DNA of 56,737 bases, filler included, from Dugesia japonica (taxonomy: Eukaryota), in NCBI GenBank assembly GCA_001938525.1. It is 5 parts of 5 records of this genome, joined end to end, with 100 filler letters (N's around TTAATTAATTAA, not from the genome) between each part and the next. Parts side by side here need not be neighbours in the genome. Positions count along the whole stretch, not along the records: positions 1 to 10,683 come from MQRL01637098.1; 4 more parts are not named here. One strand, written 5' to 3'. Shown here in pieces: positions 4,170-46,480 of this stretch. The notes beneath the pieces were generated by a model. That model ran no database searches, was not told where the DNA came from, and saw nothing but the letters and a program-made list of their open reading frames with translations. Made by a program: the position numbers and the translations under genes. How positions within the stretch are numbered: position 1 is the stretch's first letter; each line of letters starts with the position of its first letter.

Positions 4170-5313
4170 AGTGCCAATAAGAGGCGTCACGTTAACCCTT
4201 ATAACAGGGACCTGACGTGTTAGCTGATCACACCAACTTACCGCACGTTGAGGCACTGGTGGAGCGAATACAGAATTTTGGTGAGCGGCGAAACTACTAT
4301 TCATGGTATGTTCCCCTGCAAAGCTTAGTAACTCGCTTCACGTATTGGCCATCACCAGCTCCACCCGGGGTAAGAGCCGGGATAAATAATTTGTTATGGA
4401 GTGTCCGGGATTCGAAAAATACAGAAAATATCGAAAATATTGAGAACACTCAGATCCCTGAAAACTAATCTTATTGGTGTCATATTTTTAATAAATGTCT
4501 CTCCGTTAAACTCATGAATAAATCCTGTTTTAGACTAAATTAAGCATTCTCGAAATTAATTTTATTTTTGTGCAATAAATTGGTTGATCGCTAAAATTTT
4601 TAGTGACAATTTTTTCTTTATAAATCCTTCTGTTTTAATCTAACTATTAACCACACTAGAGTGGTATCTAATCGTCAACGATGTTTTCTATTTAGTGGTC
4701 AGAATACGTCTTCCTAATAGCCTGCGATGATGTTATAGGTTGATCCAGAAACTACTGATGGAAAGTCACTTTGCTAAACGTAATGAGCGCGCTTTATTGC
4801 GTCACCTAACCCAACGAAATCGTTTAATTGAAAAATTAGATTTAATAGTTAAGAAACCAGGAGCATTGGCCGAACGCACCAGACAGATACTCAAAAATAA
4901 AATTAACTTTCTGAACAGGTACATCGCTGACTTGTCCTCCCAATTAGAGCTCGGGTCATGGACAAAATGGAACAGCGATGACGACGAGGACGCATTCGAT
5001 TTACTGAATGACGAGCCGCCCCAGTGACTTGATCCGGGTGCATTAAATTATATCTAATTAAAGTCTGTCGTGATGTAATAGATTTTTCTTATGCTGTAGT
5101 TATTGATATAATAAGTGAAGTATTTAAATTGGGGAATATTGAACCCGAAATAAAGGTGTATGAGTGTGTACTTCAAATAAGCGTTTGAAGTCAATTGTTC
5201 TGCACTGACAACCTAAATAGGGGCTTTAGGTAAATTCTTGAAAGGGTCCCCTTAAGGCTGTCTTTTCCCCCGGCCACATTTTTTTTCTAAACCAAACTCA
5301 GGTGGAACCCCAA

Positions 5314-5315
<2 letters not shown>
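4170..5315 (+). mobile_element. Unclassified multi-ORF element, family 1, copy 1 (ORF B, ORF D, structured terminus)
   Basis: ORF 4217-4468 is homologous to 26523-26876. The exon 4696-5057 is homologous to 9571-9953 and 25670-25997. The terminal module 5131-5315 is homologous to 9319-9505 and 27761-27940. It ends CCCCAACA directly against (TTA)n. Confidence 0.85.
4696..5057 (+). pseudogene. Family 1 ORF D (basic coiled-coil protein with acidic W-x-x-D-D-D-x tail), decayed
   Basis: Begins tttag|TG GTC AGA. Two in-frame TGA sit at codons that are R and W in the other copies. The true end 'LDPGALNYI*' matches 'LDPGALDLI*' of copy 2. Confidence 0.75.
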
Positions 5316-5363
<48 letters not shown>

Positions 5364-5413
5364 NNNNNNNNNNNNNNNNNNNNNNNNNNNNNNNNNNNNN
5401 NNNNNNNNNNNNN

Positions 5414-5464
<51 letters not shown>

Positions 5465-5485
5465 TTATTATTTTTATTATTATTA
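5316..5485. repeat. (TTA)n microsatellite
   Basis: Directly visible, interrupted by an N gap. Confidence 0.95.
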
Positions 5486-6379
5486 GAAAATTAATAAAGT
5501 CATTTAAAATGAAACTTTATTGTTATATATTTCGACGGATCAACAGATAAAAATGAGTTTATTTAACATATATTATTTAAACAAAGATTTAAGCAATTAT
5601 ACTGCATCGATGGTTATAATTCTTAATTTTAGAAAATTCTTTTATATATTGTTTTATATATTTTTTAAAAATTTTTCAATAAAAAATTAAATTAAAATAT
5701 TTTTTTAAAATTACTGTATTTTAAATTTATAAAATTGAATACGTTTTTCCAAAACTATACAATAATTAAAATTTACAATTATTTTAAAAAATAAATTTCA
5801 AAACCTCTAGAAACCTATAAAAACATGAACATATTAAAAAATCAAAAATTGAAAGAATTTTTTATATCTGAAAAATTTTAATCAATTAAGTCGAATGAGC
5901 TGCCTGTACATTAATACTTGGATTATGAAATCTAATCATTAACGCCTCATACAACACTCTCTCCCAGTAATTTTTAAATTGCTTAGACAAAAGTTGAAAA
6001 TTTTAAATTTCAACATTCGCATTTCAATTACTGTTATTTTTATATTTATGCTCAGCAATATTACTACCACCACCAAAACGATTATGCTATTGAACCCTTG
6101 TACAAAGATGACGGGCAGTCTCTCCATTGTATGTGGCATCACACCCATTGCATTTAAATTGATAAAAAAGATTAGAACACAAACCAATTAGTGTATGGGA
6201 TTTATTAACAAAGCTTTACAATCTTATGAGAAGTAGAGACAATTTTCAATAAAGGAAGATACTTAGCAGCTTTCAGAATCAAGTGATTAAAAATTTTAAA
6301 ACTTTCAGAATAAAGAATCGATAAAACAAATGGATCAATACAGTTTGATAAAGTGTCATCTGATTCATAATATTACAAC

Positions 6380-7640
6380 CTTTTTCAGTCTTTTTTTTAT
6401 ATCGAAATCAATGTTTTGTCAATTGTCTGTGAAGTCAATGAATTTAAAAATTGTTTAATATATCTATCCAACCAACTCTAATTTCTCTCGACACCCGAAT
6501 TTTAATACCCACTTCTCCATTATTGCTATCCTTATGGTATATTCATCTTGTCTTGCTATTGCTATCAAGGCTACATACTTACTGTATGAATCTATTATAA
6601 CGAGAACATCATTTTTGACCTCTTGTCTTCTGCATCTACACACATCTATAAATAACAATTCAAACATTTCGGCTGGTTGTGTCTTTTTCGTTTCTGCTTT
6701 CATTTGTATTGTCAACACTTTAGCTTTCTGGCATGTTATACAGCTTCAAAAAACCTCTTGTACTTTGCTCCACAATTATTTTGCGTTATGTTTATGCTTT
6801 ATATACGCTGTTACGTTTTTTGCACAAGAATGACATAATAGATTGTGTATCTTTATTAAAATCTCTTCTATTTTATGATAGGGTATCCATGTTCCTTCAT
6901 CATTTTCTTCAAAATTGTCTTGCTTCTCTTGGATATTTACTGTATTTAACATCCTTCTTTTTAATTTTCCATTTTTGAAATCTTCATATGCCATTAGTCA
7001 TTGTGTACATTTATCACATTCATTCCTTGACAACTTATCTGTATTCGTATGAAGTTATCCTTTTCTATACTCCAATTTTATATCTAAACTGCTCAAGTAA
7101 TTAATTCAAGTTTGAAACTGTGATGTGATTGTTGTCTTGACATTTAGCATAAAAGTGATAGCTTTATGGTCTGTTCTGAGGATAAATCTCTTGCCGTATA
7201 ATGATGTTTGAAATTAATACAAAAGTAGTGAATTGCGAGTAATTCTTTTCGCGTAGTACAATATCCTTGTCATTGNNNNNNNNNNNNNNNNNNNNNNNNN
7301 NNNNNNNNNNNNNNNNNNNNNNNNNGCAATTACTCTTTCTTGTCCATTGTTGTTCCTTGGAGATAGTACTGGACCAATCGTGTCGAAACTCGCATCCGTG
7401 TCCAAAATAAATTCTTTATTTATACCTGGAAAACATAATATTGGAGACATCANTAGTGCTTCTTTCATTCCATTAAAAACGTCTTCTAATTCATTCGCCC
7501 ATTCAATTTTCTTGTTACTCGACCCACTACACAGTTGTTCCAAAAATCTAGCTTTTTTCGAATAATCTTTAATAAACTTGCGATAGTAATTGCAAATGCC
7601 GAGAAAACGTCTCATTTTCTTAACGCATTTTAGTTTACCA
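6380..7640 (-). mobile_element. Gypsy LTR retrotransposon pol remnant (RT connection, RNase H, integrase)
   Basis: 'RRFLGICNYYRKFIKDYS', 'FILDTDAS', integrase zinc-finger 'HNLLCH', and 'VIIDSYSKY...EKWVLKFG'. Frameshifted. Confidence 0.9.
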
Positions 7641-9570
7641 AATATAATATAATATAAAATTAAAATATAAAATTAAATGAATCAATTGTTTTTAGTATTG
7701 AAATTTAAAATTAAAATATTTAGCATTTTCCGTTTTTAAACGAATTTTTAAGTTTGTTTGAATAAAACAAACTTATTTTTACAGTTTTTATTTGAAATAA
7801 ATTTTAATATGGAGTCGAATTTTGATGTTGATGATCCGATGAGTACTCAAAACTCATCTAACACTGTCTATACATTGTTTAAAGGACTACTATTAAAAAC
7901 ATTCTTCATTCTCACTGAAACGAGTGTGCAGAACTAAGTTACTTATAATGGTAATAGTTATGGTTATAATTATAAAAAATCTTTAATACTTGAACACTAC
8001 GTTTTAATCTTTTTGATTCCATGGACCAGCAATAAACTTTTCACAATTTTTGTGGACAATTAACACCAAACAAGAGATCATATTCGTTTATGTAGTGAAG
8101 TCCATGTAAACGAAGGAGAGCCGACGCCGCTACACACCACGTTTAATAATAATAAGTTTTTATTGAAATGTAATGAGACTCAATCGTTAATAGCATTTGA
8201 TTTTGTGTAATTATAATAAACAATATTATTTGCAAGAATTTTACGTTGTACAACCAGTGTACGCTCTCGGTTTCTCTCCTCCTTGAGAGTGCTGTAACTG
8301 CCCATTTGNNNNNNNNNNNNNNNNNNNNNNNNNNNNNNNNNNNNNNNNNNNNNNNNNNNNNNNNNNNNNNNNNNNNNNNNNNNNNNNNNNNNNNNNNNNN
8401 NNNNNNNNNNNNNNNNNNNNNNNNNNNNNNNNNNNNNNNNNNNNNNNNNNNNNNNNNNNNNNNNNNNNNNNNNNNNNNNNNNNNNNNNNNNNNNNNNNNN
8501 GCCTCGATGGAAAATAACTTGGAAATCAATTCAACAATTTAAGTCTTGAAAACCTTTTTCGATTTAAACACATCAAAAGGTTTTTAATAAATTACATTAA
8601 TGAAACTCTTAGGTATTTATTGGTATTAATGGAAAAAATTTATTCAGCCAGTAGGTTTCTTCAGAACCAGGATTACAGTGCCAGGAATTTTCCATCCTGG
8701 GAACTTGGTGCCGGAACCGGGATTTTGAAATTTGAATTTTAAATAGTAGTTGAAACAGAATATTTATTTTTATTATTGAATTTATTACATACAATATAAA
8801 TATAAATTACATAATGCATACATAATAAATAGAAACACATCCATATGCACAATTAAATTCACAATACTCAATAAGCATAAAACGCAAAACAGTGTCAATT
8901 TCACAGTTTACATTAGGGCGTGGAAGTTCACACCTAGGATAATGTAAACATCCTGGTCTGGTACACACTTAACCACCTACTCTAATGAATTATATTTATC
9001 TTATTATTCCCATAAAAAGGTAACACCTAGTGATTCAGACTAACATAAATATACACATGCACTTCAGTCACAAAATCATATATACATACAACATATACAT
9101 CCATATACAACCAACATACATAGAATAAACAGAATATAACATTCTTTACGAATATTCTATAAATTCAATCAACATCCGATACTAAATATACAGCCAAGAT
9201 TCAATTATCAACAGATTACCAATTGATCAAACCTATTCAACTTATGACAATTATTCGCAATGTCATTTAGTTTCATTTTGATCAATGACAATTATTTTTA
9301 TTAGACTATCAATAATGTTGTTGGGGTCCCACCTGAGTTGAGTGATAAGAAAAAGGCGGCTGGAGAAAAAACAGCCCTCAGGGGAACCCTTTCAAGAATT
9401 TACCCTACCGTCCCTGTGGTAGGTTTTCAGTCTATGACGGTTGACCTTACTCTTAATGGAAGNTACACGTCGATAAACCTTTATTTCGGGTTCAATATTT
9501 TTCCCTTATTGGTATTTTTAAAGCCAAGAAATTACAATTCTGTATACAGATATTTATTACATAAAAATAT

Positions 9571-9953
9571 TTAAATTAAGTCAAGCGCTCCTGGGTCCAA
9601 CCATTGGTCTGGATCGGTCATGGAGAATTTGAACGCGGCAATGTCGTCATTATCATCCCATTGCAATATTGTGGGGTTGTTTATCTGACGGGAGAGGTCG
9701 GCAATATACTGTTTGCGAAATTCTATTTTTCTCAACAGTATTTGTTTATTTTCTGTCTCAAGTGCTTTGGTTTGGGATGCCAGATCCGTTTGTTTTCTTA
9801 CCATCAGATCTAACTTTTTTATAAGTTGGTCACGCTGAGCTAAATGTTTGAGGATGGCCTTATCTGCCTTACGTTTTAGATGCCTCTCAANNNNNNNNNN
9901 NNNNNNNNNNNNNNNNNNNNNNCGCAAACTCGTCGGAAATATGATTCTTGGCA
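9571..9953 (-). CDS. Family 1 ORF D
   Basis: Open frame apart from an N gap, beginning ttttag|TG CCA AGA ATC. Homologous to copies 1 and 3. Confidence 0.65.
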
Positions 9954-10077
9954 CTAAAATTAAGAATTACAATTAAGTGGTCAAAACCCAATTCCGAAAA
10001 AATAAACAAAATTTAGGTAATAAATGGTTTATTAAAAGTCATAACATAGCGGATAAGGTAACTCAAGAACAGCCAGT

Positions 10078-10421
10078 TTAGGTTCCTTTATCAATCATGA
10101 GAGGAGCCAGGGGGATAGCGGCCCTCAACTTCACTATATTATCTAACAATTGATTTTCTCGTTCCTGATGGGACTTGATAATGTTGGTAAAAGTCTCAAC
10201 CTGGGACTTCCACACCCGCTCTTGATTCTGGGTAGCATCCATCTCGACTTTAAAATTTAGGCATTTTCGCTTATGGCGTTTCACCTTGGCTTCTGCCGTG
10301 GTGGTCTCTGCCTCCCACCTCCTTTTGGCTAATCGATAAAGATCCCAAGTCATCTCTTTGTCATCATTCTCTTCACGTATTTTTTTGGTAGGGGCCTGGG
10401 ACCTATTTAAAGATGAATGCA
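10078..10421 (-). CDS. Family 1 ORF C, coiled-coil protein (WDLYRLAKRRWEAE)
   Basis: Open 114-codon frame beginning tttcag|TG. Strongly similar to 26114-26400 on another scaffold. AATAAA follows the stop. Confidence 0.65.
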
Positions 10422-10683
10422 CTGAAATATAAATATGCTTTTAAGGCGTTATACTTTATTCAGATTCAACTGTTATTAGAAAAGCTGTGTCGTTTAGATT
10501 ACAAATAATAATAAATGAAATTAATAAACTCAATTCCATTACCAATATAGTTATGTGGTACGATTAACAAAAATGGATACAATCAAAATCAAAATTAAAT
10601 GACTTCTCCCCGAAATCAATTCACAAGAAAATTTAGAATTAGTCATAAATCAAACACTTATTTATTTTTAACAAAAAACCAAG

Positions 10684-10783: not shown

Positions 10784-10850
10784 AAATATAAATATAAATA
10801 TAAATATAAATATAAATATAAATATAAATATAAATATAAATATAAATATA
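10784..10850. repeat. (TAAATA)n hexamer microsatellite
   Basis: Directly visible. Confidence 0.95.
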
Positions 10851-10869
10851 TATATAATATATTTGTTAG

Positions 10870-11634
10870 ATAACCATTTTGTCGAAAATTCTAGTTCAAA
10901 TATCAATAATGAAGTAAGTTATATATTAATTTGAAATTAATTAACACATTTCATTAAGAATGATATTGAATTAAAAAATGTAAATAAAATCTTTGAAACC
11001 AATTATGAAACTGAACAAATTAATATTTTATCAAAACATTCCCAAGATATTGAACATTATCAAAAGGAAATCAATTCAAATTGCGAATTTATGAAAATAG
11101 AAAATGAAAATAATTTAAATGATGAGGAAAATGATGACATTAATTTAATAAAGAAGATGAGACTGAATGAAAATTATGAAGCCTTGGAAACAGTTGATAA
11201 AATATTTAAACAATATCCAGAGAGTTGTTGTAATAATCCTAAACGTGATATGAATTTATTAAATGATCAAGATGAAATAATTTCTGATGAAAATAATCGA
11301 AATGTTTGCTCATTAAAAACAAAGGATTCTGAATTAGAATTAAAAGAATATAAAAATGAAGAAATATTGAACTCTAATAATCTCCAAGAATTAATACAAA
11401 ATGATGTAATAAATTGTAATAATCATAATATTAATATTGATACAAAGGATTGTACGAAAAATAATGATATAACTTCAATTTCTATAGAATCTGATAGAAA
11501 TCAATTATTGATGATAGAGAAAAATTCTAGTCAAGAAAAATTGGATTTTTTAGTATGTGATAACGAAAACAAAAGTAAATCGAATTTCGCAACGGAAAAT
11601 TATTTTACCCAGTCTAAACCGATTTCTGTACAAG
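10870..11634 (+). CDS. Filamin-like gene, N/E-rich two-exon cassette copy 1 (exons 10870-10913 and 10959-11634)
   Basis: AG/GT sites, 45-nt intron, open frame ending 'PISVQ G|gt' (phase 1), which matches the phase of the filamin exon at 19249. Confidence 0.7.
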
Positions 11635-13596
11635 GTTACATTTATATTTATTTAATTATAATTTTTTTTATCAATTAGAACAAGCATGTTCAACTTTTTG
11701 GTTATTGACGGTCGCACAACATAATTTTTTCTTTTATAACGGCAAACGACACAAATAATGTTTTTCAAATATAAACACCAAACGTCTCAATATCTTAAAA
11801 AAATTATTTATAATACTATATAATANATATTTAAATATAAATAGTCAAATTTTATTATCAATAATTTTTTTATTTAATCTAAGCACGAAAATCAATGCTT
11901 GCCTTGGTTTTGAGAATTAGCTAAATTAAAAACTTTGTATAGCTTGTTTATTATATTTTATTATTATAAATTTAAGCACAACATAGAAATTTTCCACGGC
12001 TGCAAGTGGCGCACCCCTGATTTATAATATATGGCAGATTACTTTAGTTTATATTTATTATATCATTGAATAATTTTATAGAAATAATTTTCTTTTGATT
12101 TTTTAGGAATCAGAAATTATTTGTAGTTTTAAATAGATTTAAATAACAATTTATTTGATTTTTCACAATTTGTTTACACTTCCTTTCGATTGTTACTTTC
12201 TTTCAGATTTGTCAAAAATAAAAATAATTTTAGTAAAAATCTAGTAACAGAATTTTTCTGTTTTATTTTCATAGAATTACCAATTTCAATTCCAGAAATA
12301 ATGAGGAACATTTTATGATATTAAAATCGATAAAAAAATGTTTTATTAAATAATTTATAATTTACAGTGTTATTTATTTNNNNNNNNNNNNNATAGCCTT
12401 TTAATAATTAACTAGTTTATTCTAGGTGCCCGCAGTGCCTGTAAATTTTGAATTTTTTAAATGAGAATAATTATTGTTAATCTAAATTTCTTTATCTAAA
12501 GTTTGTAGCTAGTAACATAGTAGACCACTACAAAAAATCATCTTTTTGTTAAGTTCATAAATAATTATGACTAATTCAAACGAATATCGGGTAATTCACA
12601 CAAAATCGCACGGTTAATCGCATTTAAATCTTCATTCCAAACTAACTCAAATATATGTTAACTGTAATGGTATATTAATTTGTTAATTTCTACACACTTA
12701 TAAAATTACTTTTGACTTTTTACCTGTTTGCGAGCGTTATAGTGTGAGTTAGTTAGTGAATTGAATAAATATATTATAGATTTAAAGTTTCTATCAGTTT
12801 TTTTGGTTTCACCAACTGCATAATACAACTAAAACTGAGACGTTTATTTTGTAATTTATAAAGATTAATATATGAATTTAATATAAAATCTAAAAATAAT
12901 TTAAAATTTATTTTAAAATAAAATAATATACTTTTCATACCCATAAAATATAAAATCTGTTTACTGTGAGACTACTGTTGGTGATCCTACGTGTTATAAG
13001 TAGGATTTTAGCCAGAATAACTTGTATTTTTCCGATGCACTATGTTCTTCACGACCGATCGACACTAATAACAATGAAATATTGGTGCTTATTGAAAGTA
13101 ATCATAATAGAACGACTGAAAATATTAATGAATTACTTGATATTAACCATTCTGAAATGTACAGACGCTCAAATAAACTTGTAATGATTACTGTGAGTAG
13201 TTTAGAAGCGAGTTAAAATTTTTTGTGCTCTTTTTTGAAAAAAATCAAAATCACAAATTAATTAAGAAATTAAAAAAAATTAAAATTTTTGGAAATGACA
13301 ATTTTGTTTTGAAAGTTCAGAAGATTTTAAAATGATAATTTAATAGCAAGNGATTTTGTTTTGAAAATTTTATGAAAGTTTTTGTGAAAATTTTAAACGA
13401 TATATTATTAACAAATGATAATTTTTTGGTTTGAAATTTTATGAAAATTTTAAAAGGATGTGTTATTAAAAAATAATTATTTTCTGTAAATTATCAAATT
13501 AATTTAANNNNNNNNNNNNNNNNNNNNNNNNNNNNNNNNNNNNNNNNNNNNNNNNNNGTGAAAAATAATTTCCGATTAGAGCATGCGGTTTTAATT

Positions 13597-15210: not shown

Positions 15211-15319
15211 GAATTTCGAAAAGTTATAATTTGTTTGATAAATATTTTAAAAACTTTTAATTTTATTTATGTTTGCAACTACTTTCAACTGTTAGTAAAT
15301 AATGTAATATATTTTATAG

Positions 15320-16150
15320 ATAATATTAATGTCGAAAGTTCTAGTTCAAATATCAATGATGAAGTAAGTTATATATTAATTTTAAATTAATTAACACATT
15401 TTATTAAGAATGATGTTGAATTAAAAAATGTATATGAAATTTTTGAAAACAATTATGAAACTGAACAAATTAATATTTTATCAAAACATTCCCAAGATAT
15501 TGAACATTATCAAAATGAAATCAATTCAAATTGCGAATTTATGAAAATAGAAAATGAAAACAATTTACATGATGAAGAAAATGATGGCATTAATTTAATG
15601 GAAAAGTTGAAACAGAATGAAAATGATAAAGGAAATTATGTAGTCCAGGAAACCGATGATAAAATATTTAAACAATATCCGGAGAGTTATTGTGATAATC
15701 CAATTGTAAAAAAGAATGTGAGTTTGTTAAGTAAACGAAATGAAAAAAATCCTGATGAAAATAATTCAAATATTTATTCATTAATAACGAATGATTCTGA
15801 ATTAGAAATTAAAGAAAATATGTCAAAAGAAAATGTAAATAATATATTACAAAACATAAATAAAGAGCAAAACAATGAAAACAATCTCAATTTCAATAAC
15901 TGTTCAATAAATGGTCTACAAAATTTAATAATAGATAATATATTCCAATGTGATAATGAGAATATTAATATCTCGGATATTACAAAGAAAAACGATGTAA
16001 CTTCAATTTTTAATGAATCTAGTGGTAACAAATTATTATTGATGAAAAAATATACTAATCAATATTTTAATTATGATGATGAAGATGATAATCAATCGAA
16101 CTTTATTATTCTAAATTATCTAATTCCATCTAGACCAATTTCAATACAAG
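15320..16150 (+). CDS. Filamin-like gene, N/E-rich two-exon cassette copy 2 (exons 15320-15363 and 15409-16150)
   Basis: Paralog of 10870-11634 with the same splice sites and a near-identical 45-nt intron. Ends 'PISIQ G|gtaat'. Confidence 0.7.
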
Positions 16151-17075
16151 GTAATTTATAAAATTTTGTTCTTGAATTTATTATAATTATGTTTATTTCA
16201 AGATTTAATTTTTAATTTAATATTTTTTATTATTACTAATTTTCTTTATAAATTTTTGTATTTTAATATTTTTATATATCAAATTTTTATCATTTTATCC
16301 TCACTCAATTTTAGTTTAGTCAAAGCTTTATCACTCCCTCCTCCAGCAAAGTGATATAGAATTTCACTGGTACAGTATACTGCACTCTGATTGGTTGAAA
16401 GCGTGTTACTAAAAATAAGTGATAAAGTATCACCAAATATATAGGAAAAATTATATTAACATAACAGTTTTTAAATAAATAGATGCGGTTTACCTTTAAA
16501 ATGTATTAATTTATTAAATACGATACAGATTCTGTCAAAGTTTACTGCGTACAAGATATATAATAAATGAAATTGTTGAGTTGAAAAATATTATCCATAA
16601 ATTGTAGTAAATTTATTAATTGTTGAATAGATTTTAAATTTCCATAATTTTATGAATTCATGAATAAATGGAAATTTTATTATTTAGCCTAAATTATTTT
16701 TTCATGTGAAATCCGAATGTTCTTCAATTATTATAATCGCTGGTTCAAAATATTTTATGAACCAATACACCCGACAGGTCAATATCATATTTACAGAACC
16801 ATTTTGCAGTTAAAATCTTTCTATGAGCAACAATTGCCATCAGGTCTATCTGCCTTTTGGGAGCAGCTCTTCGTGGTTGAGGAGCATCTGGTAATTGCTT
16901 AGACCCAATATCGTTTTGATTGTGCTGTTGAATATGCTGCTTCAACATGACTTGTAAAGCAGCATAGATATGATAGATTTTACAATTAAGACCAAGCAAT
17001 AACAACTGTATAGAAGACTAATAAGGATCATTTGAATGTATTTTGAATGACTTTGTCGATCGTGATAAAATGTTA

Positions 17076-17236
17076 CAGGGTTTCTAACTTAACTTAATCC
17101 TTTAAAAAACAATTCAATTCTTTTAAAAAATAATTTAATCTTTTTAAAGTAGAATTTAATACATTCAATGGATTAAATTATATTTTAATACAATTAAATT
17201 ATTTTTTAAAAGGATTAAATTTAGTTAGAAACCCTT
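17076..17236. mobile_element. Palindromic MITE
   Basis: TIRs AGGGTTTCTAACT / AGTTAGAAACCCT with further internal inverted symmetry. Confidence 0.75.
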
Positions 17237-18639
17237 TATCAATTTTCAAAGACCAATTAAGGAAAATGAATGCAAATTTGTGTAAGTTGATCTCGATGAA
17301 TCTGTTACTTAAAATCCGTTAATCTTCAATTGTTCTGTTAATTTATCAAGATTTTTAACACTACAATAAACACCAATCTGCCTTTTTTCATGAGCAGTAA
17401 ATAAATAATACAATATATACAATTCTCTTTCAAGCAGTTGCTGCTTTCTTCGATTTTGGTCACCCAGCTTTCTGACCAATTTTTATTTTATTATTTTTAT
17501 ATTCGAAATTAGTTCAAGATCGTGGTGATAATTTAATGACATGTGGAAATTTTAATGATATTAATAATNNNNNNNNNNNNNNNNNNNNNNNNNNNNNNNN
17601 NNNNNNNNNNNNNNNNNNNNNNNNNNNNNNNNNNNNNNNNNNNNNNNNNNNNNNNNNNNNNNNNNNNNNNNNNNNNNNNNNNNNNNNNNNNNNNNNNNNN
17701 NNNNNNNNNNNNNNNNNNNNNNNNNNNNNNNNNNAAAAATAAATGCATTTGAAATTTGAAAAATCAAATAAAAAAGAAAAAATTTGATTAGATGTTTTAA
17801 TGAAAAAAGACACATGACGAAATCTGTCAATTAAAAGATTAAATCAGAAAGATAATGATCAAAATTATAGGAAAAAATTATGAAATTTTACAAAATTAAT
17901 ATATTTTTTAAGAAAATTGTTATTTTTAAATTTTATTTTAAATTATATTTAAAATATTTGATAATTAAAAAAAATTAGAAAAATTTCATCTAATTTCTTT
18001 TGAAATATTCTATACTTTAAATATTGTTTAAATATTACTGATTTTAAAAATTGATACTGTGTTTCTCCAAATACAATCTCAGGCTTGTATTATTTTCATG
18101 AAATATTTTACTTATTGGCCATATGAAAATAATTTTTTTAGTAATGTTATTAATCAACAAGATAACAATAGTCAGATTCATTAAATGAAACTCATGGCTT
18201 ATAATTGATATCGTCCTTTTTTCGAGAAACACTTTGTATATTATTTACCATTTTATGTTATTATCAAAATCAGTTACTAATCACATGTCGGATAAAAATA
18301 ATAAAAAAATAATCTGAATAATCAATATAGGATACATTTTTATTAATTTGTAAACATAGAAATCCAATGTGTTTAAGAATAACATTAAATAAATTTCGTT
18401 AATCAATTTATGAACTTATAAAACAACAAATTATTAAAGAAAATATTATTGAACAAAATAATCTATGACGAATTCAAATCCAAACATAAAGCAATTAATG
18501 ATTTCACTTGTTAGCAATTGATCTGTATTTATCAAATAGAATTTTTCAAAATAAAAAGATAAAAATTGTGTTTGTTTTTCTATTTTCATGGATTTTTTAA
18601 TATTTTTATTTAGTTTTCTGAAGGAGAAATAGTTATTAT

Positions 18640-24548: not shown

Positions 24549-26113
24549 TAATTCCTAGGCAAAAAAGTCTTATCCGAGTGCTTTATTATATTTCTGTGTA
24601 ATAAAAATAATAAAATTAATAATAATTAGTTCAATTTTCAATTCGATTGTCGCAAAGTTTGGAATGTTGATGTGCAATATTTGAATGATGTGAGAGATTA
24701 ACAATTTGATTTTCAACATGATTAAATAAACAGTTATTGACTTGTCTTGTCGTCTATATTAATGGTAATGACTAAGAAATACCGCGTAATAAAATTAATA
24801 CCGTATCTTAATTACATTGTTATTTTGTCGACAATCAATATGCTGTAAAATGGGTGTAAAGTAGTAGTGTCTGTCATACAGAGATAATGGTGACTAATGA
24901 AATGCACAAAATATTCTTTCTTGTATCTGGTTTTTACACGCTACTGTAAATAACTATTCTAATTTCAAATGTAAAATTATGTAATTATTTTTTGAATAAA
25001 TGATTTTTTTTCTTTTTTTTGGTGAAATATTTTATTGTATGTCTAAATTTTCCATATTTTTTGTAATAAATTAATTTTACTTCAAAGAGAACAGTCAAAG
25101 TAATATAATTTTTTTTAGAAATTATTAGATAATTGTAGAACATTATTTCTATTTTCTGAGTAGATAGGTAGTAGCACTCCAACTCACCCCCCAGGAGATA
25201 ATTTTTTCAGGCCGACTTTTCATGAAAATTTATTTGAAAATTTTTAAAAACTTAGATTTCGAGAATTTTGTCCAATACACAAGCACTCTCAAAAGAACTT
25301 CTTTCTTTCCTCCTAGCTTTAATCATCATTCAAAGCAAAATGTTTACTATGATTAAGAATATAATATTTAAAAGTCAATATTACTTATTCACAACAAATA
25401 AAATGAAACTAATACTAGAATTCTCACCGAGTAGACTTGATATTATAATAATATTAGACACAAATTAAATAACAAAAGATTTTCAAACAACAATTTATTT
25501 AAATTAAATCTTGTTTCTATCCATCTGATTGAGCTGTTTTGAACTTGTGAGTTGAAAGTAATAAAAATTCATTAATTTCAATGAATAAATAACAAATCAT
25601 AACCTTTACATTATCTGGATAAACTTATTCGCTACGGTTTGAACTACTATAATGTTTGAACTACTATATAAAATTGAAGGTGGCATCGTCGTCGTCATTG
25701 TTCCATTGCTCCCAAGTTGGTGGTTGAGTCGGCGAGAGAGATCCGATATATATTGCTTGAGGAAGTCAATTTTCCTCTGCAGCAACAATTTGTTTTCGTC
25801 TTCTAACGCTTTGATCTGCCTTGCCAGGTCATTTTGTTTTTTCACAATCTGATCAAGTTTCTTGATCCGACAATCTCGTTGGTTCAAATGTTTGATCAGT
25901 GCTTAATCGGTTTTCCGCTTTAGATGACGTTCTAATAGTAGGCAGCGCAATATGCGATGGCATCTGCGGATACTATTGGGAAAGGTGATGCGGGGCACTA
26001 AAAGAAATTAAATTAGCATATAGGCAACTTAGCAAAAATTATCAAACGCTACAACAATAACTGATTTCACAAGAACGCTTAAATGAAACATTTATTTATG
26101 AAAACGAGTAGGG

Positions 26114-26400
26114 TCATGTCCGAGGGGTTTCAGTGCTTTTCTCAATCATCAAAGGCTCGAGAGGGATCCTTTCCCTGAGATGTAAAACATCATCAACCAG
26201 TTTATTCTCTCGGTCATGGCTGGACTGGATTATTTCCGCAAAGGACTCGACCTGTTTTTTCCATACCCGCTCCTGCAAGTGGGAGGCCTCGGCTTCCTTT
26301 TTAAAGGCGATACACTTTTTCTTGTACCTAGATACATTACTATTTGCGGCGGCTATTTCTGCCTCCCATCGTCGCTTTGCAAGACGGTAGAGGTCCCAAC
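26114..26400 (-). CDS. Family 1 ORF C, coiled-coil protein
   Basis: WDLYRLAKRRWEAE...QERVWK.QVE.F...PL.PLMI shared with 10078-10421. The start is uncertain. Confidence 0.65.
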
Positions 26401-26522
26401 TAATAAAATAATACTTAGTATAACTCCGATTACTAATACTAAGTTCTAGATCACCCAAATCGTCTTGATATTTTAGAACAGGACAACTAGATAATTTTAT
26501 TATACGTCACACATATAAATCA

Positions 26523-26876
26523 CTAAAAAGGAGTGGATAAATCCGGCGCGGGTGCAGTATTTTCCGAGTCTTCGCTACCTGAGGGTTCCCTTATTCCCCA
26601 GAGTAGGTTAGAGGGAAAGGCCTGTACCGCGGGCACTGGAGTTGGAGTGGGAGGCCGATACTGAAAGGATGTTGCAATGGTGCGATTAGGGACTGCCCAG
26701 GCTTGGTATCGCTGACGCTCGCCAAAGTCTCTTATGCGCTCGACGATGGACTCTACAGGAGGCAAACTAGATCTGTCGGCCAAAATGCACGCGTCCCGAT
26801 TGTGGGGTTTGTGGTGTCGTCGGAAGATTATTCGACGAGTTCTTCTATCCACTATCCTTTCCAATATTGATTCCAT
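26523..26876 (-). CDS. Family 1 ORF B, 117-aa Arg/Pro-rich protein
   Basis: ATG 1 nt after the tttatag acceptor. Conserved with 4180-4468 (LAD..LP.VE..VERI..FGER..Y..W.VP; NLLW). Confidence 0.7.
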   Translation of the reverse strand: MESILERIVDRRTRRIIFRRHHKPHNRDACILADRSSLPPVESIVERIRDFGERQRYQAWAVPNRTIATSFQYRPPTPTPVPAVQAFPSNLLWGIREPSGSEDSENTAPAPDLSTPF

Positions 26877-27025
26877 TCTATAAATAACCGAAATTTTGTT
26901 TAAATTATAATATATAATTTCCTTTTAAATTAATTAATGGTAACAGAAATAAACAACAAATAGATTTAATCAAATCATCAGTTTATTTTAGACAATTAAC
27001 AGTAATTGGCAGATTACACTCCTGC

Positions 27026-27220
27026 TTAGAAAGGCGTACTCTTCGCATCTAGATCTACTGGAGTCACTGAGGGGAACATCTCCGCGAAACAGCAAAGATC
27101 TGTCTCATCCGGGTGTTCAATTCTTCCCTTAGTTAATAGATGGGCAATGAACTGTCTTAATCGAGCAGTTTGACGTCGTCGTTTTATCCATTGGAGAGTA
27201 CGGCGCAATTCGGGTGTCAT
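27026..27220 (-). CDS. Family 1 ORF A, 64-aa basic protein
   Basis: ATG 3 nt after the ttattcag acceptor. GC-richer than the flanks. AATAAA downstream. Confidence 0.55.
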   Translation of the reverse strand: MTPELRRTLQWIKRRRQTARLRQFIAHLLTKGRIEHPDETDLCCFAEMFPSVTPVDLDAKSTPF

Positions 27221-27760
27221 GAACTGAATAAAGACAACAAATATTAAATGATGACTCCTACAAAAAAAATTTCATTACTATTGCCGGCTTTTATTAATAG
27301 GACGACTCGTTCCATTTCCACGATACTAGTTTACTGAATAATTTTAATTTAGACTCATTGGTCAATATTAGAATCTTAATAACATTTTTAACATTCATCA
27401 TAAAGATAGTAGGGCTAAACGTAGTATTTTTTTATCTTACCAGGGATAAACGTCACCTTGAGCATGTTAATAATAATGGTAATAATATAACGGATCATAA
27501 TTTCAACGATGACACTACCCATATGGCCAATAGTAATGTTCATAACTACCACATTGAGAATGATTTTAACAGTAATCAGGACGATGATCATACTAATGAT
27601 AGTACTGTTAAAGATAGTAAAAATAATAGTTGAATTATTTCAAGTTTACTGGTACTTAAAGTAGTATTAATACTGTTAATTTCGTCAACCATAACCATAA
27701 AATTAGCACTCCCAACCATAAGGATAATATCGGTAATATTAATAGTCTTAGTATTGATAG

Positions 27761-27940
27761 TGTTGGGGTTTCACCTGAGTTGGAAAAGGTGACTGGGGAA
27801 AAACAGTCCTCAGGGGAACCCTTTCAAGAATTTAAACCCTACCGTCCCTATGGTAGGTTTTCAGTTTATTGTGGTTGACTTTTCTCTTGATGGAAAGTTC
27901 TCACCAATAAACCTTCTGTTCGGGTTCTATATTTTCCCAA
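27761..27940 (+). other. Family 1 structured terminal module (third copy of the module)
   Basis: Homologous to 9319-9505 and to the reverse complement of 5131-5315. Begins TGTTGGGG. Confidence 0.85.
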
Positions 27941-28090
27941 TAATATTTAAACTATTTTAATTAACATTTAATATTACGAAAAGAATTTAANNNNNNNNNN
28001 NNNNNNNNNNNNNNNNNNNNNNNNNNNNNNNNNNTTAATTAATTAANNNNNNNNNNNNNNNNNNNNNNNNNNNNNNNNNNNNNNNNNNNN

Positions 28091-28640
28091 TCGTATTTAT
28101 TGGTTTTCCATTTGTGATTATATGATGTACTGCCGATATCCCAGTTGCCTGCCATGAATATTCCTTAATGAATCATTATAACTTTCTCCAAATTGTCATT
28201 TAACTTGTTATTCAATATTTTTATTGCTCTCTGTACTCTCTCATCATCCGTTGTATTGCGTCCATACTTTGCTTCTATATTACAAATATACATTTCATTA
28301 TCATCACATTTAGTCTCTCTCAGAAGTTGGAATCCAAACTTTTTCTGTAATTCTATTCCTCCCATTAGATCTGGATGTATCTGTTTCACCACGCCTTTAT
28401 TCTTGAATTCCACTTCTACCTTTATCGCACCTACGATTTCGAGTGGACTATTATTGGCACATCCTAAATTATCTTCACCTTTTAAAATATTAACTTTTCT
28501 CAATCTGTNNNNNNNNNNNNNNNNNNNNNNNNNNNNNNNNNNNNNNNNNNNNNNNNNNNNNNNNNNNNNNNNNNNNNNNNNNNNNNNNNNNNNNNNNNNT
28601 TGTTCTTTCTTAAATAGGCCATTAACTTTTCTGACAGCCT
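28091..28640 (-). mobile_element. Gypsy protease/RT-linker remnant
   Basis: 'CANNSPLEIVGAIKVEV...PDLMGGIELQKKFG' (retropepsin C-terminal half), then 'WDIG' before RT. Confidence 0.65.
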
Positions 28641-29649
28641 AGTTTATTAAAAACATTTGATATTTTTTTTAATTACGAAAATGGGTGTCTTCAATAATTT
28701 TTTATAATACTTTCTATTGTATCTAAAACTTTCTATTGTATCTAAAACTTCTATTCTGATTCAAAAACAATTATTTTTATAACGAATCGATATAATTTCC
28801 TAAAAGGTTTTCATATCGTAATAATATCGTAAAGTATTTAATTGCACATTAATTACTACAAAGCGTTATTCTTTTATATTACTCTATTATTTTCGAATAA
28901 ATGATTTTTAAAGTAAGTAAAAATTGAATACATTTCTTAATTTCTAAATTTAGAATAATAAAAAGAATGAATTAAAAAAATGAATGAAAAAGGAAAAATC
29001 TTTAGTTGTTGAATAATTTTAATTTACAAATTATAACAAATGAATTTTTTATTTTGCACTTTTGATGTAGACACAGTATTTAGATTAATAGTTAATTAAA
29101 ATTTGTTATAATAGTTTGTCTATATTGTACTGATTACAGTCTTATAATAACAATTGAATTACATTTAATATTTATAATAATGAAATGATTCATTTTCTTT
29201 ATTTTTTCATATCTCACCAGTCTAGTCCTGGGAACTTGTCGACAAATATTAATTTTTCAAATCATAATTTCATATCATAAAATAATAGTAATATAATAAT
29301 AATANNNNNNNNNNNNNNNNNNNNNNNNNNNNNNNNNNNNNNNNNNNNNNNNNNNNNNNNNNNNNNNNNNNNNNNNNNNNNNNNNNNNNNNNNNNNNNNN
29401 NNNNNTAATTGACAATAATTGACCGTTTTCAATTTTTATTGGAGTTTGTTAATATCTGCAATTAATTGTAAATTAAGTAATATAGTTACTCCATATCCTA
29501 AAAACCCGATTTCTTAAAAATACTTATTACAGTAATAAAACAAAGACAATTAACAAAGTTTATCGCGAATGTGGTACACTGACAGTTAATCCTTTCTGCC
29601 TTATAATCTCCACCACTATGCGTGATTTGCTTTCAAAAAGTAAAGTCAA

Positions 29650-30670
29650 AGTTTCTGGTTTATTTGACCAAAAATTCTCTTAAAATGATCACCACAGTTT
29701 TTCAAAATTTTGAAATTTATTGCTAAGACATTGCTTTTTGAGCGAATTGAAAACGCCGAGGTTGTTAGCATTTAAATCTGAAGACTACACTGGCTGGTTA
29801 ATGATGGTGATGCAGTGAACAAGTCTATCTCTGAAGTCGTTGAAGCGTTCAACAATTATTCTTTCCAACGTGAGAGCGATCATTGTTCATTTGAATAATC
29901 ACATTCTGGTACCACTGCATTTTTTTTGCAGATTGCTGACATATTTTCATTGGTCATTAAAATTATCTGCCGTCATTAAGCAATCAACTTTGTAGATATC
30001 ACCCTTACTATGATTTTTAGAAAAATGTAGGGCTTTGACATGTTTCTGAATCATCCAAATACCGATCAATCCATTAAAGCCATTTCCCAAATCAGGCTTA
30101 GGAGTAACTAAAAGTATCATGGTTTTTGATGGATTACCTTTACTGAGTAATGTCGGTTTTCTTCGCCGACTGTTATCATGATATTGTTCCTGATAGAAAG
30201 GATACAACTCGAGACACTTTTCATCTCTATCAACATGAGCATTCCATTGATTATAACGATTTTGTCTAGCTTTTTCAATTTTTGATCATCACTTAAGGAA
30301 GGACTGGTTCTTCTGGGAGCCAAGTCTCATTCCTTCTTCTTTGATAATTATTTGAACACTAGTATGGGGAATATCAGTCTCTTCAGAAAGAGACGCAATG
30401 CTAGAGGATCGGCGCTTGCGAATAGCTTCGACAACTCGTTGTCGTCTATCAGCATATCCTTTGATATTCTTTCTTCCTAAACCACTCTTCCTATCCAGTG
30501 TACTTCTTTCCAAAAATNNNNNNNNNNNNNNNNNNNNNNNNNNNNNNNNNNNNNNNNNNNNNNNNNNNNNNNNNNNACTGTTTCATACTCAGACAGGACC
30601 AATTTTCATAAGAATCTTCTCATAGTGAATTTGCAATAATATTTTTTCATCATTTGACAGCGCCATAGTA
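29650..30670 (-). mobile_element. Tc1/mariner superfamily transposase of the plant-mariner (DD39D/Guest)-like type, decayed
   Basis: N-terminal 'RKSGLGRK', 'HVDRDEKC', 'FNGLIGIW', 'IIQMNNDRSH' and 'QPV*SSDLNANNLGVF'. About 40 residues lie between the 2nd and 3rd catalytic positions after one frameshift correction. Confidence 0.75.
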
Positions 30671-31199
30671 TCTATACCATAGAAACCAGATTTATTTATT
30701 TAACAACCCAAAATTTAATAAAAGAGTTTATAATTCTTATTTCTTTAGCTGAAATAATATTGTTTAGAGTAAGTAATATAATTAAAGTTATAAAGCTTAA
30801 ATGGGAACACATTTTCATTTTTTTACTCTAAACCAAACCAAAATTTGGCCCATTTGAATAAAATTTTAAAAAATTATTTTAAAAATTTTCATGAACAGTT
30901 GGCTACCTAAGTATTTGAGACCATAGCTGGGTAGGAAAATGGGGGCACATTAAGTGAATTTCACTGTAATTAAGTTTGATTATTAGTATAATATTAATAA
31001 TATAAATATGTATTCTGACTTGATATTTACGCAAACTTTTATAAAATTTTCTTTAATATTGATTTGAACAATTATTTATTATTTCAATTATAATTTAAAA
31101 TGAATAAACTACAATTTATTAGTAGTTAGAACACAAGATTCTTCCATAAAAATACTTTTTTTTGTCGTTCATCTTTCTTTTTTTTCATATTTCTTTTTC

Positions 31200-31324
31200 T
31201 GTAACGTCGTCGCTAGTTAGAACACAAGATTCCTCAATAAATGTTTATTTATTAAAATACAAACAATAATTACAAAACTGATAAAAATTAAACAAAGTTT
31301 ATATTTCAATTTATAACTGATATA
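31200..31324 (-). repeat. Putative 3' LTR (~125 bp)
   Basis: Similar to 35287-35412. On the minus strand it is preceded by purine-rich AAAAGAGAG. Confidence 0.65.
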
Positions 31325-34300
31325 GAACTGCTCTCTTTTAATTTTGAGTTTCAATTTTCTTCAGCCATTCCAATCTTCTAGTTTTGAGTTTCCCTGCAAA
31401 GTCAATAATCACATGGTGTGGGCTTATGAATTTAATTATTTTATATGGACCTTCATTTCTTAAACCATCTTTCTTCAGCTTATTTGGATGACCTATACTA
31501 ATACTTCCTCCCCTTCATTAAATTGTCTATACGTTCGTCTGTGAAATTCACATTTGCTTAACTTTTTAGCCTCTTCATGTAAGTTTTGTCATCTGCTATT
31601 GCTTTCATTTTTTATGATCTGAAATTTCTTGTTGTAGTAACACAAGTAAAACTATCTTTCTTCCAAAGATGATTTCGAAAGGAGATAATCCAGATGATTT
31701 CTGTTTAGTCGCATTCATAGATAATTGTATTCTTGGTAGTAATTTGTCCCAGCTTGCTTCCAAACATCCATTTTTTATCGTTGTTACCATCATATCTCTC
31801 AAAGTTCTGATGCTTCCTTCAGCTAAGCCATTTAATTGATGCTGATATGGTGATGCGAACTCTTGTTTTATCTCAAATTTATTTGCATTAATTTTGCTTC
31901 AAAAATCTTTCATTTATCAGTTAAAAATGACTTCGGTTTCCCAAAACGATATATCTACTGCTCTTTTATCGCATCAACTACTGACTTTTCATCCTGTTTA
32001 TTCAATGCTACAAAAGAAACTAACTTACATAATCTGTCAACCGTGACGAAAACATATTTTTTCTTAGTTTTTGCTTCGGGAAAATGAACAATATCCATGA
32101 CAACCTGTTCTAAAGGTACATACTTTGTTCTTAGGATCAGATACTCTTTCGTTTTACCAGTGTATGTCTTTCTCATATTGCATATCATACATTTTTTAAT
32201 TGGTGTTCTACAATCCGTTTTATATTTGGCCAAAAATAACTTAGATTTAAATATTCTGTCAGATTTTGACCTCCTGCGTGACATAATAAGTTTGGGTATC
32301 GATTGCCCTGCAAGTACTATTTTCTTTTTGTTATTTTCATTGGTAATTAACAGCTCATCACTCATCTCAAATTTTTCCATTTTTGAAAATTTTTACTTTT
32401 CGTCACCATAGCTCAGCTATCTATCACCTTTTCCTTTTTCTGTATATTCAATAATTTCTCTTGTAACAAGATCATTTCTTTGTATTTCTTTGATACGACA
32501 TTTAACAAAATCTGTTTATCTAATACATTGATTCTTTTAACCCGAGCTCGTTCTCCCTTGGCATCTTGATTTGACTTCTAAAATTGTGAACACCAGCTTT
32601 CGCCTATTCTTGAATGTCCGCCAGCATACCTTTGTGCTGCTCCTTTTCTGAATTCTAGATCGAAATTAAATTCTGCTAAATTTGTTATCCATGTTTGGAA
32701 CTGCGAACTAATAGGTTTACTCGTCTTCGTCATAAATGCCAAAGGTTCATGATCTGTTCTTGCTGTAATTTTTTTCCGTTTAAATAATGTTTGAAATACA
32801 CCATAAACTTGTGCAATGCCAACAACTCCATGCGATTTACTCAATATCCTTTTTCATGATCATTTAAAGTGCGAGAACCACAAGCTATTACTTGTTCTAA
32901 TCCATAATTTGTAACTTGGCTTAGAACTCCTCCAATGCCTCAAAACTAGCATTTGTATCTAATATCATTTCATTTTTATAATTTGGAAAAGCGAAGATAG
33001 GAGCACTACATAACTTAATCTTTAACATTTAAAAACTAATTTCACATTCCTTTGTCCATTCGATGTTTTTTTCATGGCTCGCAGTGGCTGCATATAAATG
33101 TGCTACAATGAGAGCGTAGTCTTTTATAAACCGCCTGTAATAATTGGTTAGACCAAGAAATGCCCGTATTTGTTTGGTGCATTTTGGTGTCTACGCTTTT
33201 CAAATTTTCCTGATAGTATTGTCATTTATCTCTACACCTTTAGCACTAATTGTATGATCCAAGAATCGAAATTTCTCAGAATGTGTATTCAACGCATTTA
33301 TCCGGATTTATCTTTCAATCTGTTTATTTGAATAAAGAAAAAACTTTACCAACCCGCTTATCATGCTCTTGTTGAGTTCGACCATATATCAAAAAATCAT
33401 CCAAGTATACTGGTACTCCTTTATACAACATTCCGTCGAATAATTGATGCATCAAACTTTGGAAAGTTGCTGTTGCAGTGCGATCAAAACCAAACTGCCC
33501 CATTTTCGTACTAAAAACTGTCTTCAACTTCGATTCTTCACTTAATTTAATTTGATTGTATGCTTGTCCCAAATCGAGCAACGAAAAAAAGTGATACCTC
33601 AAGCGTGTCTAAAAGTAGTTGAATATCAGTCACCTGAAAGGAGTTTTTATCTGAAATTGAATTTAATTTCTGAAAATCCAGACACATTCTTATTGCTCCG
33701 CCTTTATTCAGTACAATTACCACTGGTGAATTCAACGGACTTCTGAAACTCTTGATAATATTTGCTTTTCTAAGATTTCTCAATAACACATCACTTTTGC
33801 TTTCCAAATGCATTGGCTGTCTTCTAGGATTTAACATTATTGATCCTCTTTTTGTTTCAATGTGATGTAGCATTATTGTTGTAAATCCAAGATCAAATTT
33901 CGATGTCATAAATATCTCTACGTGTTCTTCTATCAGTTTTATAATTTCTTGATTGATATTCTTTTAAATATTCATAACCTTTTTTACTCTTTTTGAATTC
34001 TCAACTTGCTCAACAACAACATCCTTTGAATCAATAAAATCAATTTCGGTCATCTTCATTCCAAATATTCTCATCATATCAATGCCCCCAATAAATTCGG
34101 GACGAATATTTTTGACAATTACTACTTCTTTTTCTCTTCATTTCCCATACCAATGTATATGTAATTTAGTTATACCAATACATCTTTTTCCTTTCTCTGA
34201 AAATGTTTCTGATAATACAATCTGCTACTGCGATAACTCTAGTGATTTAATTCTTCTCCAAACGTCTGCACTTATTACTGACATTGATGCTCCCGAATTC

Positions 34301-35286
34301 CATAATATTTCAACGTCAAATCCATTACGCTGCATTATGCTTCATTCTCTCCGATCGTTCTTCTGAAATACCTTCTTTTTATCAAATATAATTCTTGAAT
34401 CTCTGGTTTTACAATCGGTTATTGCAGCCTCACTGATGAAGTAGTTTGCCAATCTTTTTTATATCGTCATCGTCTGTAGGGACATCATGTATATAATCTA
34501 TCGATTTCCTTGTACAGGACCAATTATCATCTTCATCTGCAACACACAAAACACACCGAAAAATCCTTTACTCGAAATGATAAACAATCACGAAAACTAT
34601 GACCTTCCTTTCCACAAATTAAGTATTTTCCTTTCAATGGCCAATTCATCCTTCTATGACTAGTTTCTCCACATGCTCCTGCCTTTATGATTTCGTTTCG
34701 CGACGTTATCTTACCTTTAGCTTTACAATATAGTTTATTTGCTAGATGTTTCAATGAATACTGCGGGAAACTATTGTACTGACCTTGTCTTTGTATCGGC
34801 TTACTTTATTTGAAATATGGATCATCTTGAGTTGGTCGGTCTCTAATATTTGTGTCCTTTTGAACACTTATCTTCAGGTGATTGTTTCCAAATTTGGATT
34901 GATATATATTCTTTTTTAATGATTCAGCATAACTCTCTTTCATCATATTTCCAGAGTATTAGGTTATCCAATTTAGTAGCCAATTCCCTTCGTTGAATAC
35001 CTGTTAACTATGGTTGGATGACAAATGATTCCTTCAACTTTTCGCTCCGTATGCCATTAGTTATAAGCAATGTAGCTATTTCATCTAATGACTTTTTACT
35101 TGAAAATACTTNNTTGAAAATACTTTATATAATAATTTCATAAAATAAATTAAAAATATCGATATTTAATTTTATGAAATATTTTATTTTACATGTTTTA
35201 AAAATAAGTTTTAATATTATAAATATAAAAATTAAAGAAAAATCTCTCAGATATTTAAATCTATGAATGATTCTTACAGTGGTCAC

Positions 35287-35752: not shown

Positions 35753-35890
35753 TTTCATTAAATTAAAAGCTTTGATCAAAATGTTGTTTTTTCATATTTT
35801 TTTTAATTTTTGGTAATATAACAACTAAAACACAAAGATGAAAAAATATGGAAAAAACAACATTTGAGTGAAGCTTTTAATTTAATGAAA
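35753..35890. repeat. Palindromic repeat; its right arm belongs to a dispersed family also at ~20598-20680 and ~46546-46620
   Basis: ttcattaaattaaaagctt...aagcttttaatttaatgaa. All three sites share 'gtccaaca.ttattctc.caata'. Confidence 0.65.
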
Positions 35891-46476: not shown

Positions 46477-46480
46477 TACT

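Follow-up and report, generated by a model that had tools for sequence, protein, structure and literature searches.

The window, that is, the whole stretch of 56,737 nucleotides (filler included) of Dugesia japonica that was analysed, consists of AT-rich animal DNA (GC content of 0.17–0.37 per 2 kb) in a gappy assembly. Its host genes are a single-exon GPCR, a filamin exon and coproporphyrinogen oxidase, the last with introns of 43 and 54 nt according to RNA reads, and gypsy remnants are found among them. Decayed pol remnants of the gypsy type, with Pfam matches to rve and RT_RNaseH, lie at 6400–7700 and 28100–35000 (– strand). An Asn/Glu-rich exon occurs twice on the + strand (10843–11675 and 15296–16161, 84% identical, no Pfam match) and is probably part of a filamin-like host gene. 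Long near-perfect palindromes are located at 17067–17245, 35753–35890, 36976–37112 and 46437–46518. A decayed region at 36650–38400 presumably resembles, as judged by eye, a Polinton integrase and its neighbouring genes (one frame tested, no Pfam match).

Within this DNA, four copies of a module of about 180 bp were identified: copy 1 at 5126–5315 (+), with a perfect (ATT)n run directly after it; copy 2 at 9319–9508 (–), the main copy under study; copy 3 at 27761–27942 (–), whose body lies in the assembly gap to its right; and copy 4 at 46668–46844 (–), which is newly found and absent from the initial annotation. The first three copies stand where that annotation had placed them, and copies 1 and 3 are 77–79% identical to the copy at 9319, while the identity of copy 4 to the other three is 57–59%. 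Copy 4 was located by a covariance model of the three-copy fold on the strand that carries the open reading frames (hereafter the ORF strand), with a score of 26.2 bits and a rough E-value of 2.5e-4, against 12.1 bits for the next-best match; it was left out when model R1 was built, and it was not picked up by blastn or nhmmer in the window. A second covariance model returned no fifth copy in the window, and the analysis had four copies in all to work with. Downstream of copy 2, 550 nt of strand-biased DNA (8760–9318, GT-rich on the ORF strand) end near an AATAAA, and one of the palindromes (46437–46518, with a 36-bp stem) lies just downstream of the copy 4 flank.

The read depth of the module, summed over contigs, was 592,973 and 336,339 in two DNA runs, compared with 18.5 and 10.3 for single-copy DNA. 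The ratio is about 32,000 in each run, a figure that does not equal the copy number; even with a 31-fold overcount, about a thousand copies would remain. The read depth thus points to a very large element family.

Open reading frames upstream of the module

Copy 1 is preceded on its own strand by ORF A (4205–4465, broken at its 5΄ end) and ORF C (4692–5054, with internal stops). Copy 2 is likewise preceded on the – strand by ORF B (10081–10440), whose family is predicted to form one long helix, and by a coiled-coil-like ORF C (9574–9966), which contains an assembly gap and ends about 70 nt before the module. A cassette of four co-oriented ORFs, with no module at its 3΄ end, occupies 25670–27220 (–) and comprises ORFs D (27220–27029), A (26876–26526), B (26506–26117) and a broken C (26004–25670). 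Directly upstream of copy 4, a frame at 46878–47087 (–) weakly resembles the N-terminus of ORF C; scores as high were obtained in 30 of 1000 shuffles with one C copy and in 241 of 1000 with the other. A T-rich, AG acceptor-like site precedes each ORF of the cassette, and AATAAA often follows the ORFs. RNA reads covered the ORFs to a depth of no more than 1.6 in the runs, and no splicing was seen at that depth.

In all four comparisons of ORFs between copies, synonymous sites were saturated (pS 0.78–0.87) and pN was 0.20–0.39; the ORFs coded for proteins under purifying selection. ORF B was predicted to be a single helix of 77 residues (pLDDT 89.5), and the predicted structure of ORF A was unusable (pLDDT 36). 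No match to ORFs A, B or C was found in a set of 5.8 billion proteins, exact look-ups returned 0 of 5, and Pfam, PHROG and PDB yielded no substantial match. A profile search with ORF A alone as query gave six hits, five of them repeat-driven or unconvincing and one a true relative; this sole relative outside the genome is a 94-residue protein on a 512-nt contig (E 2.6e-8, 39% identity over 67 residues). In viral contigs, 71 pattern matches to ORF B were obtained and none was confirmed.

Several other small-ORF stretches were observed in the window. Asn/Asp-rich frames at 27301–27760 (+), broken in the window copy, head towards copy 3 on the strand opposite to ORFs D, A, B and C, and this stretch is multi-copy, at 5–20 times the single-copy depth. 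Two more decayed cassettes of small ORFs with acceptor-like sites, at 45140–46340 (–) and 52500–53450 (–), lack the fold; their last ORF is common to both, together with a 27-nt end closing in AAACCCAACA (45149 and 52546), and the alignment score of this common end was 88, compared with at most 75 in 200 shuffles. A frame at 52.9–53.2 kb has a weak likeness to ORF B, which 2 and 11 of 500 shuffles equalled when the best of three frames was taken.

A covarying fold and its strand

Read along the ORF strand, copy 2 comprises a 5΄ decamer (9494–9485), stem P5 (9479–9468/9439–9429), stem P6 (9464–9458/9450–9444), hairpin H4 with a purine loop (9423–9404), a linker (9403–9390), the H1/H2 stem (9389–9377/9337–9324), hairpin H3 (9376–9358) and a terminal CAACA (9323–9319). 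When copies were folded singly as RNA, one of six folds reached a z-score of –2.9 and the other five ranged from –1.1 to +0.6. Folding the alignment of three copies gave alifold z-scores of –6.1 and –5.9 on the two strands, and none of 300 column shuffles was as good. The long stem described in the initial annotation is present, and two of the compensatory changes reported there were confirmed, namely the change of GGCUG/CAGCC to GACUG/CAGUC and the double change of CCUACC/GGUAGG to CCUAAA/UUUAGG. The ACUU/AAGU pairing was also recovered, as part of the 7-bp stem P6, in which five of the seven pairs are changed on both sides. The UCAGU/RUUGA hairpin fared differently: it shows no two-sided change, its 5΄ arm is missing in copy 4, and RNAalifold replaces it with the longer stem P5, which encloses P6 and has several two-sided changes. 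A proposed alternative pairing of the loop G(U/C)CCCU with AGGGG was likewise lost, both motifs being missing in copy 4.

For three copies, a 42-pair model on the ORF strand paired 91.9% of 124 cells and showed two-sided change at 10 pairs, which was reached in none of 500 shuffles. With copy 4 added, in an alignment that was fitted to the model, 92.5% of 160 cells were paired and two-sided change was seen at 20 of the 42 pairs; none of 500 shuffles reached any of five measures, and slid controls were 34–47% paired. Covariation is strongest in P5, at 7 of its 11 pairs. The helices that covary in the four copies are P5, P6, H4 and H1/H2, which copy 4 keeps by compensatory change, while it lacks H3. 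For H4, two further versions were read by eye from majority cells in run contigs and RNA reads, both with changes in the two arms and the same loop core. The invariant columns are mostly unpaired (39 of 61), and the invariant unpaired letters are concentrated in the 5΄ decamer, the P6/P5 joint, the H4 loop, the AAAU linker and the terminal CAACA. The module also retains a U-run. Two extra pairings, between the 5΄ decamer and the GGGU that opens H1 and between the H4 loop and the linker, have a core that is possible in all four copies and show no two-sided change. The former could act as a switch and the latter could form a short pseudoknot, although both remain unproven.

These results indicate that the module is real and under selection, and they support the proposal in the initial annotation that a selected single-stranded structure ends a mobile element. 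Since the synonymous sites of the ORFs are saturated, the 77–79% identity among the first three modules reflects selection rather than recent descent.

The initial annotation had folded the strand antisense to the ORFs. With its helix set and three copies, the G-U bias it reported does hold, at 12 G-U against 2 A-C cells for the antisense strand; 6 of these 12 fall in UCAGU/RUUGA and 3 are one helix-end pair. The four-copy, 42-pair model reverses the bias, giving 16 G-U against 6 A-C cells for the ORF strand (one-sided P = 0.026), although the cells are related rather than independent, which flatters this and the following P value. Under strand-neutral scoring, P5 has 11 G-U cells and a single A-C cell when read on the ORF strand; leaving out the shared end pair makes this 8 to 1 (P = 0.02). 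The overall figures under this scoring are 13 to 4 in favour of that strand. The four-copy alifold z-score was –15.0 on the ORF strand and –11.0 on the other, and P5 was recovered on the ORF strand only. We consider the ORF strand to be the folded one, which is supported but not proven, and the initial annotation likely folded the wrong strand.

It is nevertheless conceivable, if improbable, that the functional fold lies on the UGUUG strand, as an antisense RNA or as first-strand cDNA serving as a substrate for integration or replication. The z-score of –11.0 on that strand stands above shuffles, and three cells in H1 and P6 favour it; H1 has two A-C cells when read on the ORF strand. In the stranded poly(A) RNA run X22, whose read orientation was set by a host gene on the + strand, the module is found on both strands, at 18.3 for the UGUUGGGG strand and 10.7 for the ORF strand, and single-stranded cDNA intermediates are known in DIRS elements (excerpt of PMC7192593). 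Against this possibility stand the G-U excess of P5, the absence of the UCAGU hairpin from copy 4, and, for a DNA form, folds with DNA parameters that were no better than shuffles (z +0.4 to –1.7). The runs are about 5% divergent from the window and cover it partially, and the ORFs are nearly without X22 reads; the X22 module reads come from diverged paralogues and probably reflect copies inside host transcripts.

None of the 4227 families of Rfam 15, which include hammerhead, HDV, pistol and twister ribozymes, IRESs, snRNAs and snoRNAs, matched any copy at the gathering threshold, in agreement with the view in the initial annotation that the module is neither hammerhead nor HDV. The best hammerhead score was 14 bits against a threshold of 75; of eight strand scans, one contained the core CUGANGA, at a position within a helix. 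Read ends did not pile up in the module, where coverage was low and partial. By eye, we took the module to resemble a dicistrovirus IRES, H/ACA RNA, SECIS or HDV ribozyme, and each of these candidates failed on copy 4 or in Rfam. An exact-motif scan of prokaryote genomes gave no match, and viral contigs held no relative of the module. Six exact-motif matches outside this genome (three in metagenomes and 0, 1 and 2 in viral contigs) were attributed to chance, as they cover 17–28 bases and the rest of the module is absent. The motif was not described in the literature surveyed, which included papers on Penelope, DIRS, Ginger and ribozymes, nor in excerpts of PMC11410931, PMC8532177 and PMC6515669; repeat catalogues such as Repbase and Dfam could already list the element.

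Termini, junctions and polarity

The conserved block starts with TGAACCCGAA in three of the four copies (AG in copy 3) and closes with CAACA in all four, so that TG is found at the start in three and CA at the end in four. A purine tract lies 0–3 nt upstream in every copy. The polarity is the same throughout, with the element-like side upstream on the ORF strand (ORF C for copies 1 and 2, the weak C-like frame for copy 4 and a shared spacer for copy 3) and unrelated DNA downstream. The terminus is a single CCCCAACA/CCUCAACA end followed by DNA in ATT phase, with no run of telomere-like repeats; it reads TGTTG in the four copies on the other strand, and the opposite end of the element was not seen in the window. 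Termini of the type CG..CG, by which Troyka elements are defined (excerpt of PMC12440569), are absent, the ends being CAACA.

After CAAC, the match to (ATT)n phase was 24, 14, 16 and 20 of 24 bases in copies 1–4, and the fractions of window positions with a match as high were 0.0002, 0.034, 0.007 and 0.0006, respectively. An exact ATT directly after CAAC occurs in one copy of the four. The copy 1 junction is an (ATT)n microsatellite with a gap (5315–5485), and copy 3 adjoins a degenerate ATT-phase stretch upstream of the ORFs of another copy. The AAT-rich flank of copy 4 (46526–46667) is part of a different repeat, which also stands at 35851–35983 without a module, and the flank of copy 3 is a multi-copy stretch upstream of ORF D. 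These two flanks favour the view that ATT-rich DNA, including that of the element's own relatives, is a preferred target. We also considered that the ATT stretch might be the tail of the element itself, in a head-to-tail chain, and gave this candidate less weight since the copy 4 flank exists elsewhere without the module. The position of copy 3 upstream of the cassette fits either a pseudo-LTR or a nested insertion.

No second module was found upstream within 2.3 kb of ungapped DNA for copy 1 or 1.2 kb for copy 2, and a tRNA primer site followed none of the four copies (nor did TGG stand next to any of them); all four may be 3΄ ends, so that these absences are not decisive. The lack of a second module within 2.3 kb fits a 5΄-truncated copy 1. 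Upstream of copies 1 and 2, within the same 2.3 and 1.2 kb, there was no split direct repeat, and no internal complementary region was detected (best local scores of 9 and 8, from A-runs only). None of the copies is linked to a reverse transcriptase or an endonuclease within the window, where copies 2 and 3 run into assembly gaps. Homologous fragments at 5840–6260 (–) and 47691–47978 (+), whose similarity was reached in none of 300 shuffles, each lie within 1 kb of a module, and the former ends at the (ATT)n run of copy 1 from the opposite side. We take these fragments to resemble the C-terminal GIY-YIG region of Penelope elements (the second has no Pfam match); they could mark a shared target or a helper element.

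Element class and likeness to known systems

We tentatively favour, at somewhat below an even chance, the explanation that the module is an RNA signal at the 3΄ terminus of a Penelope/Terminon-like retroelement, one that is target-primed and attaches itself to ATT-rich DNA, a class that we infer with no mobilising enzyme found in the window. Under this explanation, the element RNA would end in the fold, which would bind the element's reverse transcriptase and leave the final bases exposed, much as the terminal fold of Penelope/Terminon elements brings the RNA end into place for reverse transcription; first-strand synthesis would then be primed from a nick in (AAT)n-like DNA. Incomplete copying would yield 5΄-truncated copies, and insertion into AAT-rich parts of relatives would yield nested chains. 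This class is suggested by the uniform polarity, the absence of a primer site, an upstream repeat, an internal complementary region or a split repeat, the microsatellite-phase junctions, the coiled-coil ORFs with acceptor sites and the location of the fold in the last 180 nt of the sense RNA. The acceptor-like sites before the ORFs would fit Penelope-like elements, which keep introns and include microsatellite-biased clades without a hammerhead (excerpt of 10.1101/2021.04.23.441226). Against it stand the missing linked enzyme and hammerhead core, the TG..CA edges with their purine tract, the strand excess in X22 together with the near lack of ORF reads there, and the two A-C cells of H1. Because it has neither a hammerhead nor a telomeric repeat, the element was filed as working like a Terminon rather than being one. 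That it represents an undescribed Terminon-like lineage is rather doubtful; in such a lineage, a structured RNA of a new class, possibly a new self-cleaving ribozyme or a two-fold switch, would replace the hammerhead at the 3΄ end, and thousands of copies of cargo-gene cassettes would be attached to (ATT)n microsatellites rather than to telomeres.

The main and serious rival, which we consider possible though not probable, is that the module is a short LTR (about 175 bp) of a retrotransposon of the integrase type, in which accessory ORFs precede the 3΄ LTR; in that case the fold would be an R-U5 leader or would signal the end of transcription, and (TTA)n DNA would be preferred by the integrase. 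The TGAACCCGAA start and CAACA end, the polypurine-tract-like sequence upstream and the invariant unpaired ends, which are suitable as integrase attachment sites, all agree with this rival, and giant gypsy-like elements with accessory ORFs occur in AT-rich flatworm genomes (excerpt of PMC6431247). It is opposed by the missing primer site, all four copies resembling 3΄ ends, by the missing second LTR upstream of copies 1 and 2, and by an AATAAA that lies about 10 nt from the presumed start in only two copies of the four. That the module is instead a structured 3΄ UTR or terminal repeat of an intron-bearing DNA element (a Ginger-like transposon or an endogenous DNA virus), with a last gene that runs up to the terminus, is unlikely. 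DNA elements retain introns easily. The terminal TGTTG fits the TGTNR end of Ginger, which has introns and AT-rich targets (excerpt of PMC2836005); yet the four modules are all oriented alike relative to the ORFs, no inward-facing partner was seen, covariation that tolerates G-U is not needed in terminal inverted repeats, and there is no linked transposase or viral gene and no relative among viral contigs. Still less likely is the right end of a tyrosine-recombinase retrotransposon (DIRS/PAT/Ngaro), recombining at ATT trinucleotides and into its own copies. Most DIRS1-like elements have NTT, mostly ATT, at both ends (excerpt of PMC3266345), and copy 3 lies inside a relative, as is likewise reported for DIRS-1 (excerpt of PMC7192593), but the internal complementary region and split direct repeat are lacking upstream of copies 1 and 2, the exact ATT after CAAC is confined to a single copy, and no recombinase was seen.

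Whichever class applies, the 3΄ end of this very abundant orphan mobile element carries an RNA structure that is real, selected and uncatalogued, with a function that we infer. Folds at retroelement ends have often turned out to be ribozymes or loading signals for reverse transcriptase. The motif lies outside the 4227 Rfam families and is kept across lineages whose synonymous sites are saturated, and must therefore serve a need of the element. Its many diverged copies in the genome would give a deep alignment at once, and an RNA of 180 nt is easy to handle in cleavage and structure work. If the target-primed explanation is true, it would account for the landing of a large orphan-gene repeat family in AT-rich microsatellites.

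Compared with known systems, the element resembles the Terminons of bdelloid rotifers (Athena, Penelope-like elements without endonuclease), which have several co-oriented, coiled-coil accessory ORFs, a conserved 3΄-terminal fold followed by a short end sequence, and 5΄-truncated, nested copies (excerpt of PMC6431247); here, ORFs D, A, B and C lie on one strand. It differs from them in having a fold other than a hammerhead, a junction of internal ATT-rich DNA rather than a telomeric overhang, and no Athena-clade reverse transcriptase next to any module copy in the window. With the Naiad and Chlamys clades it shares microsatellite bias, very high copy number, the lack of a hammerhead, intron retention and non-autonomous derivatives, whereas those have one ORF for reverse transcriptase and endonuclease, and neither a covarying terminal fold nor a small-ORF cassette is described for them in the excerpt available (10.1101/2021.04.23.441226). 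Like LTR retrotransposons (gypsy/BEL and the giant Burro), the module has TG..CA-like edges, a purine tract before it and accessory ORFs, but it has no primer site or paired LTR, and Burro LTRs add several kb (excerpt of PMC6431247) compared with its 180 bp. The ATT-type junctions and insertion into relatives recall DIRS1, PAT and Ngaro, whose internal complementary region and split direct repeats are missing from the module flanks. The pistol ribozyme is similar by eye in having a purine-loop hairpin followed by an AAA linker, with a GU between two helices near the 3΄ end of copies 1–3. However, the pseudoknot partner and the GU are lost in copy 4, there is no Rfam match, and the helix order is unlike that described for pistol (excerpt of PMC8495972).
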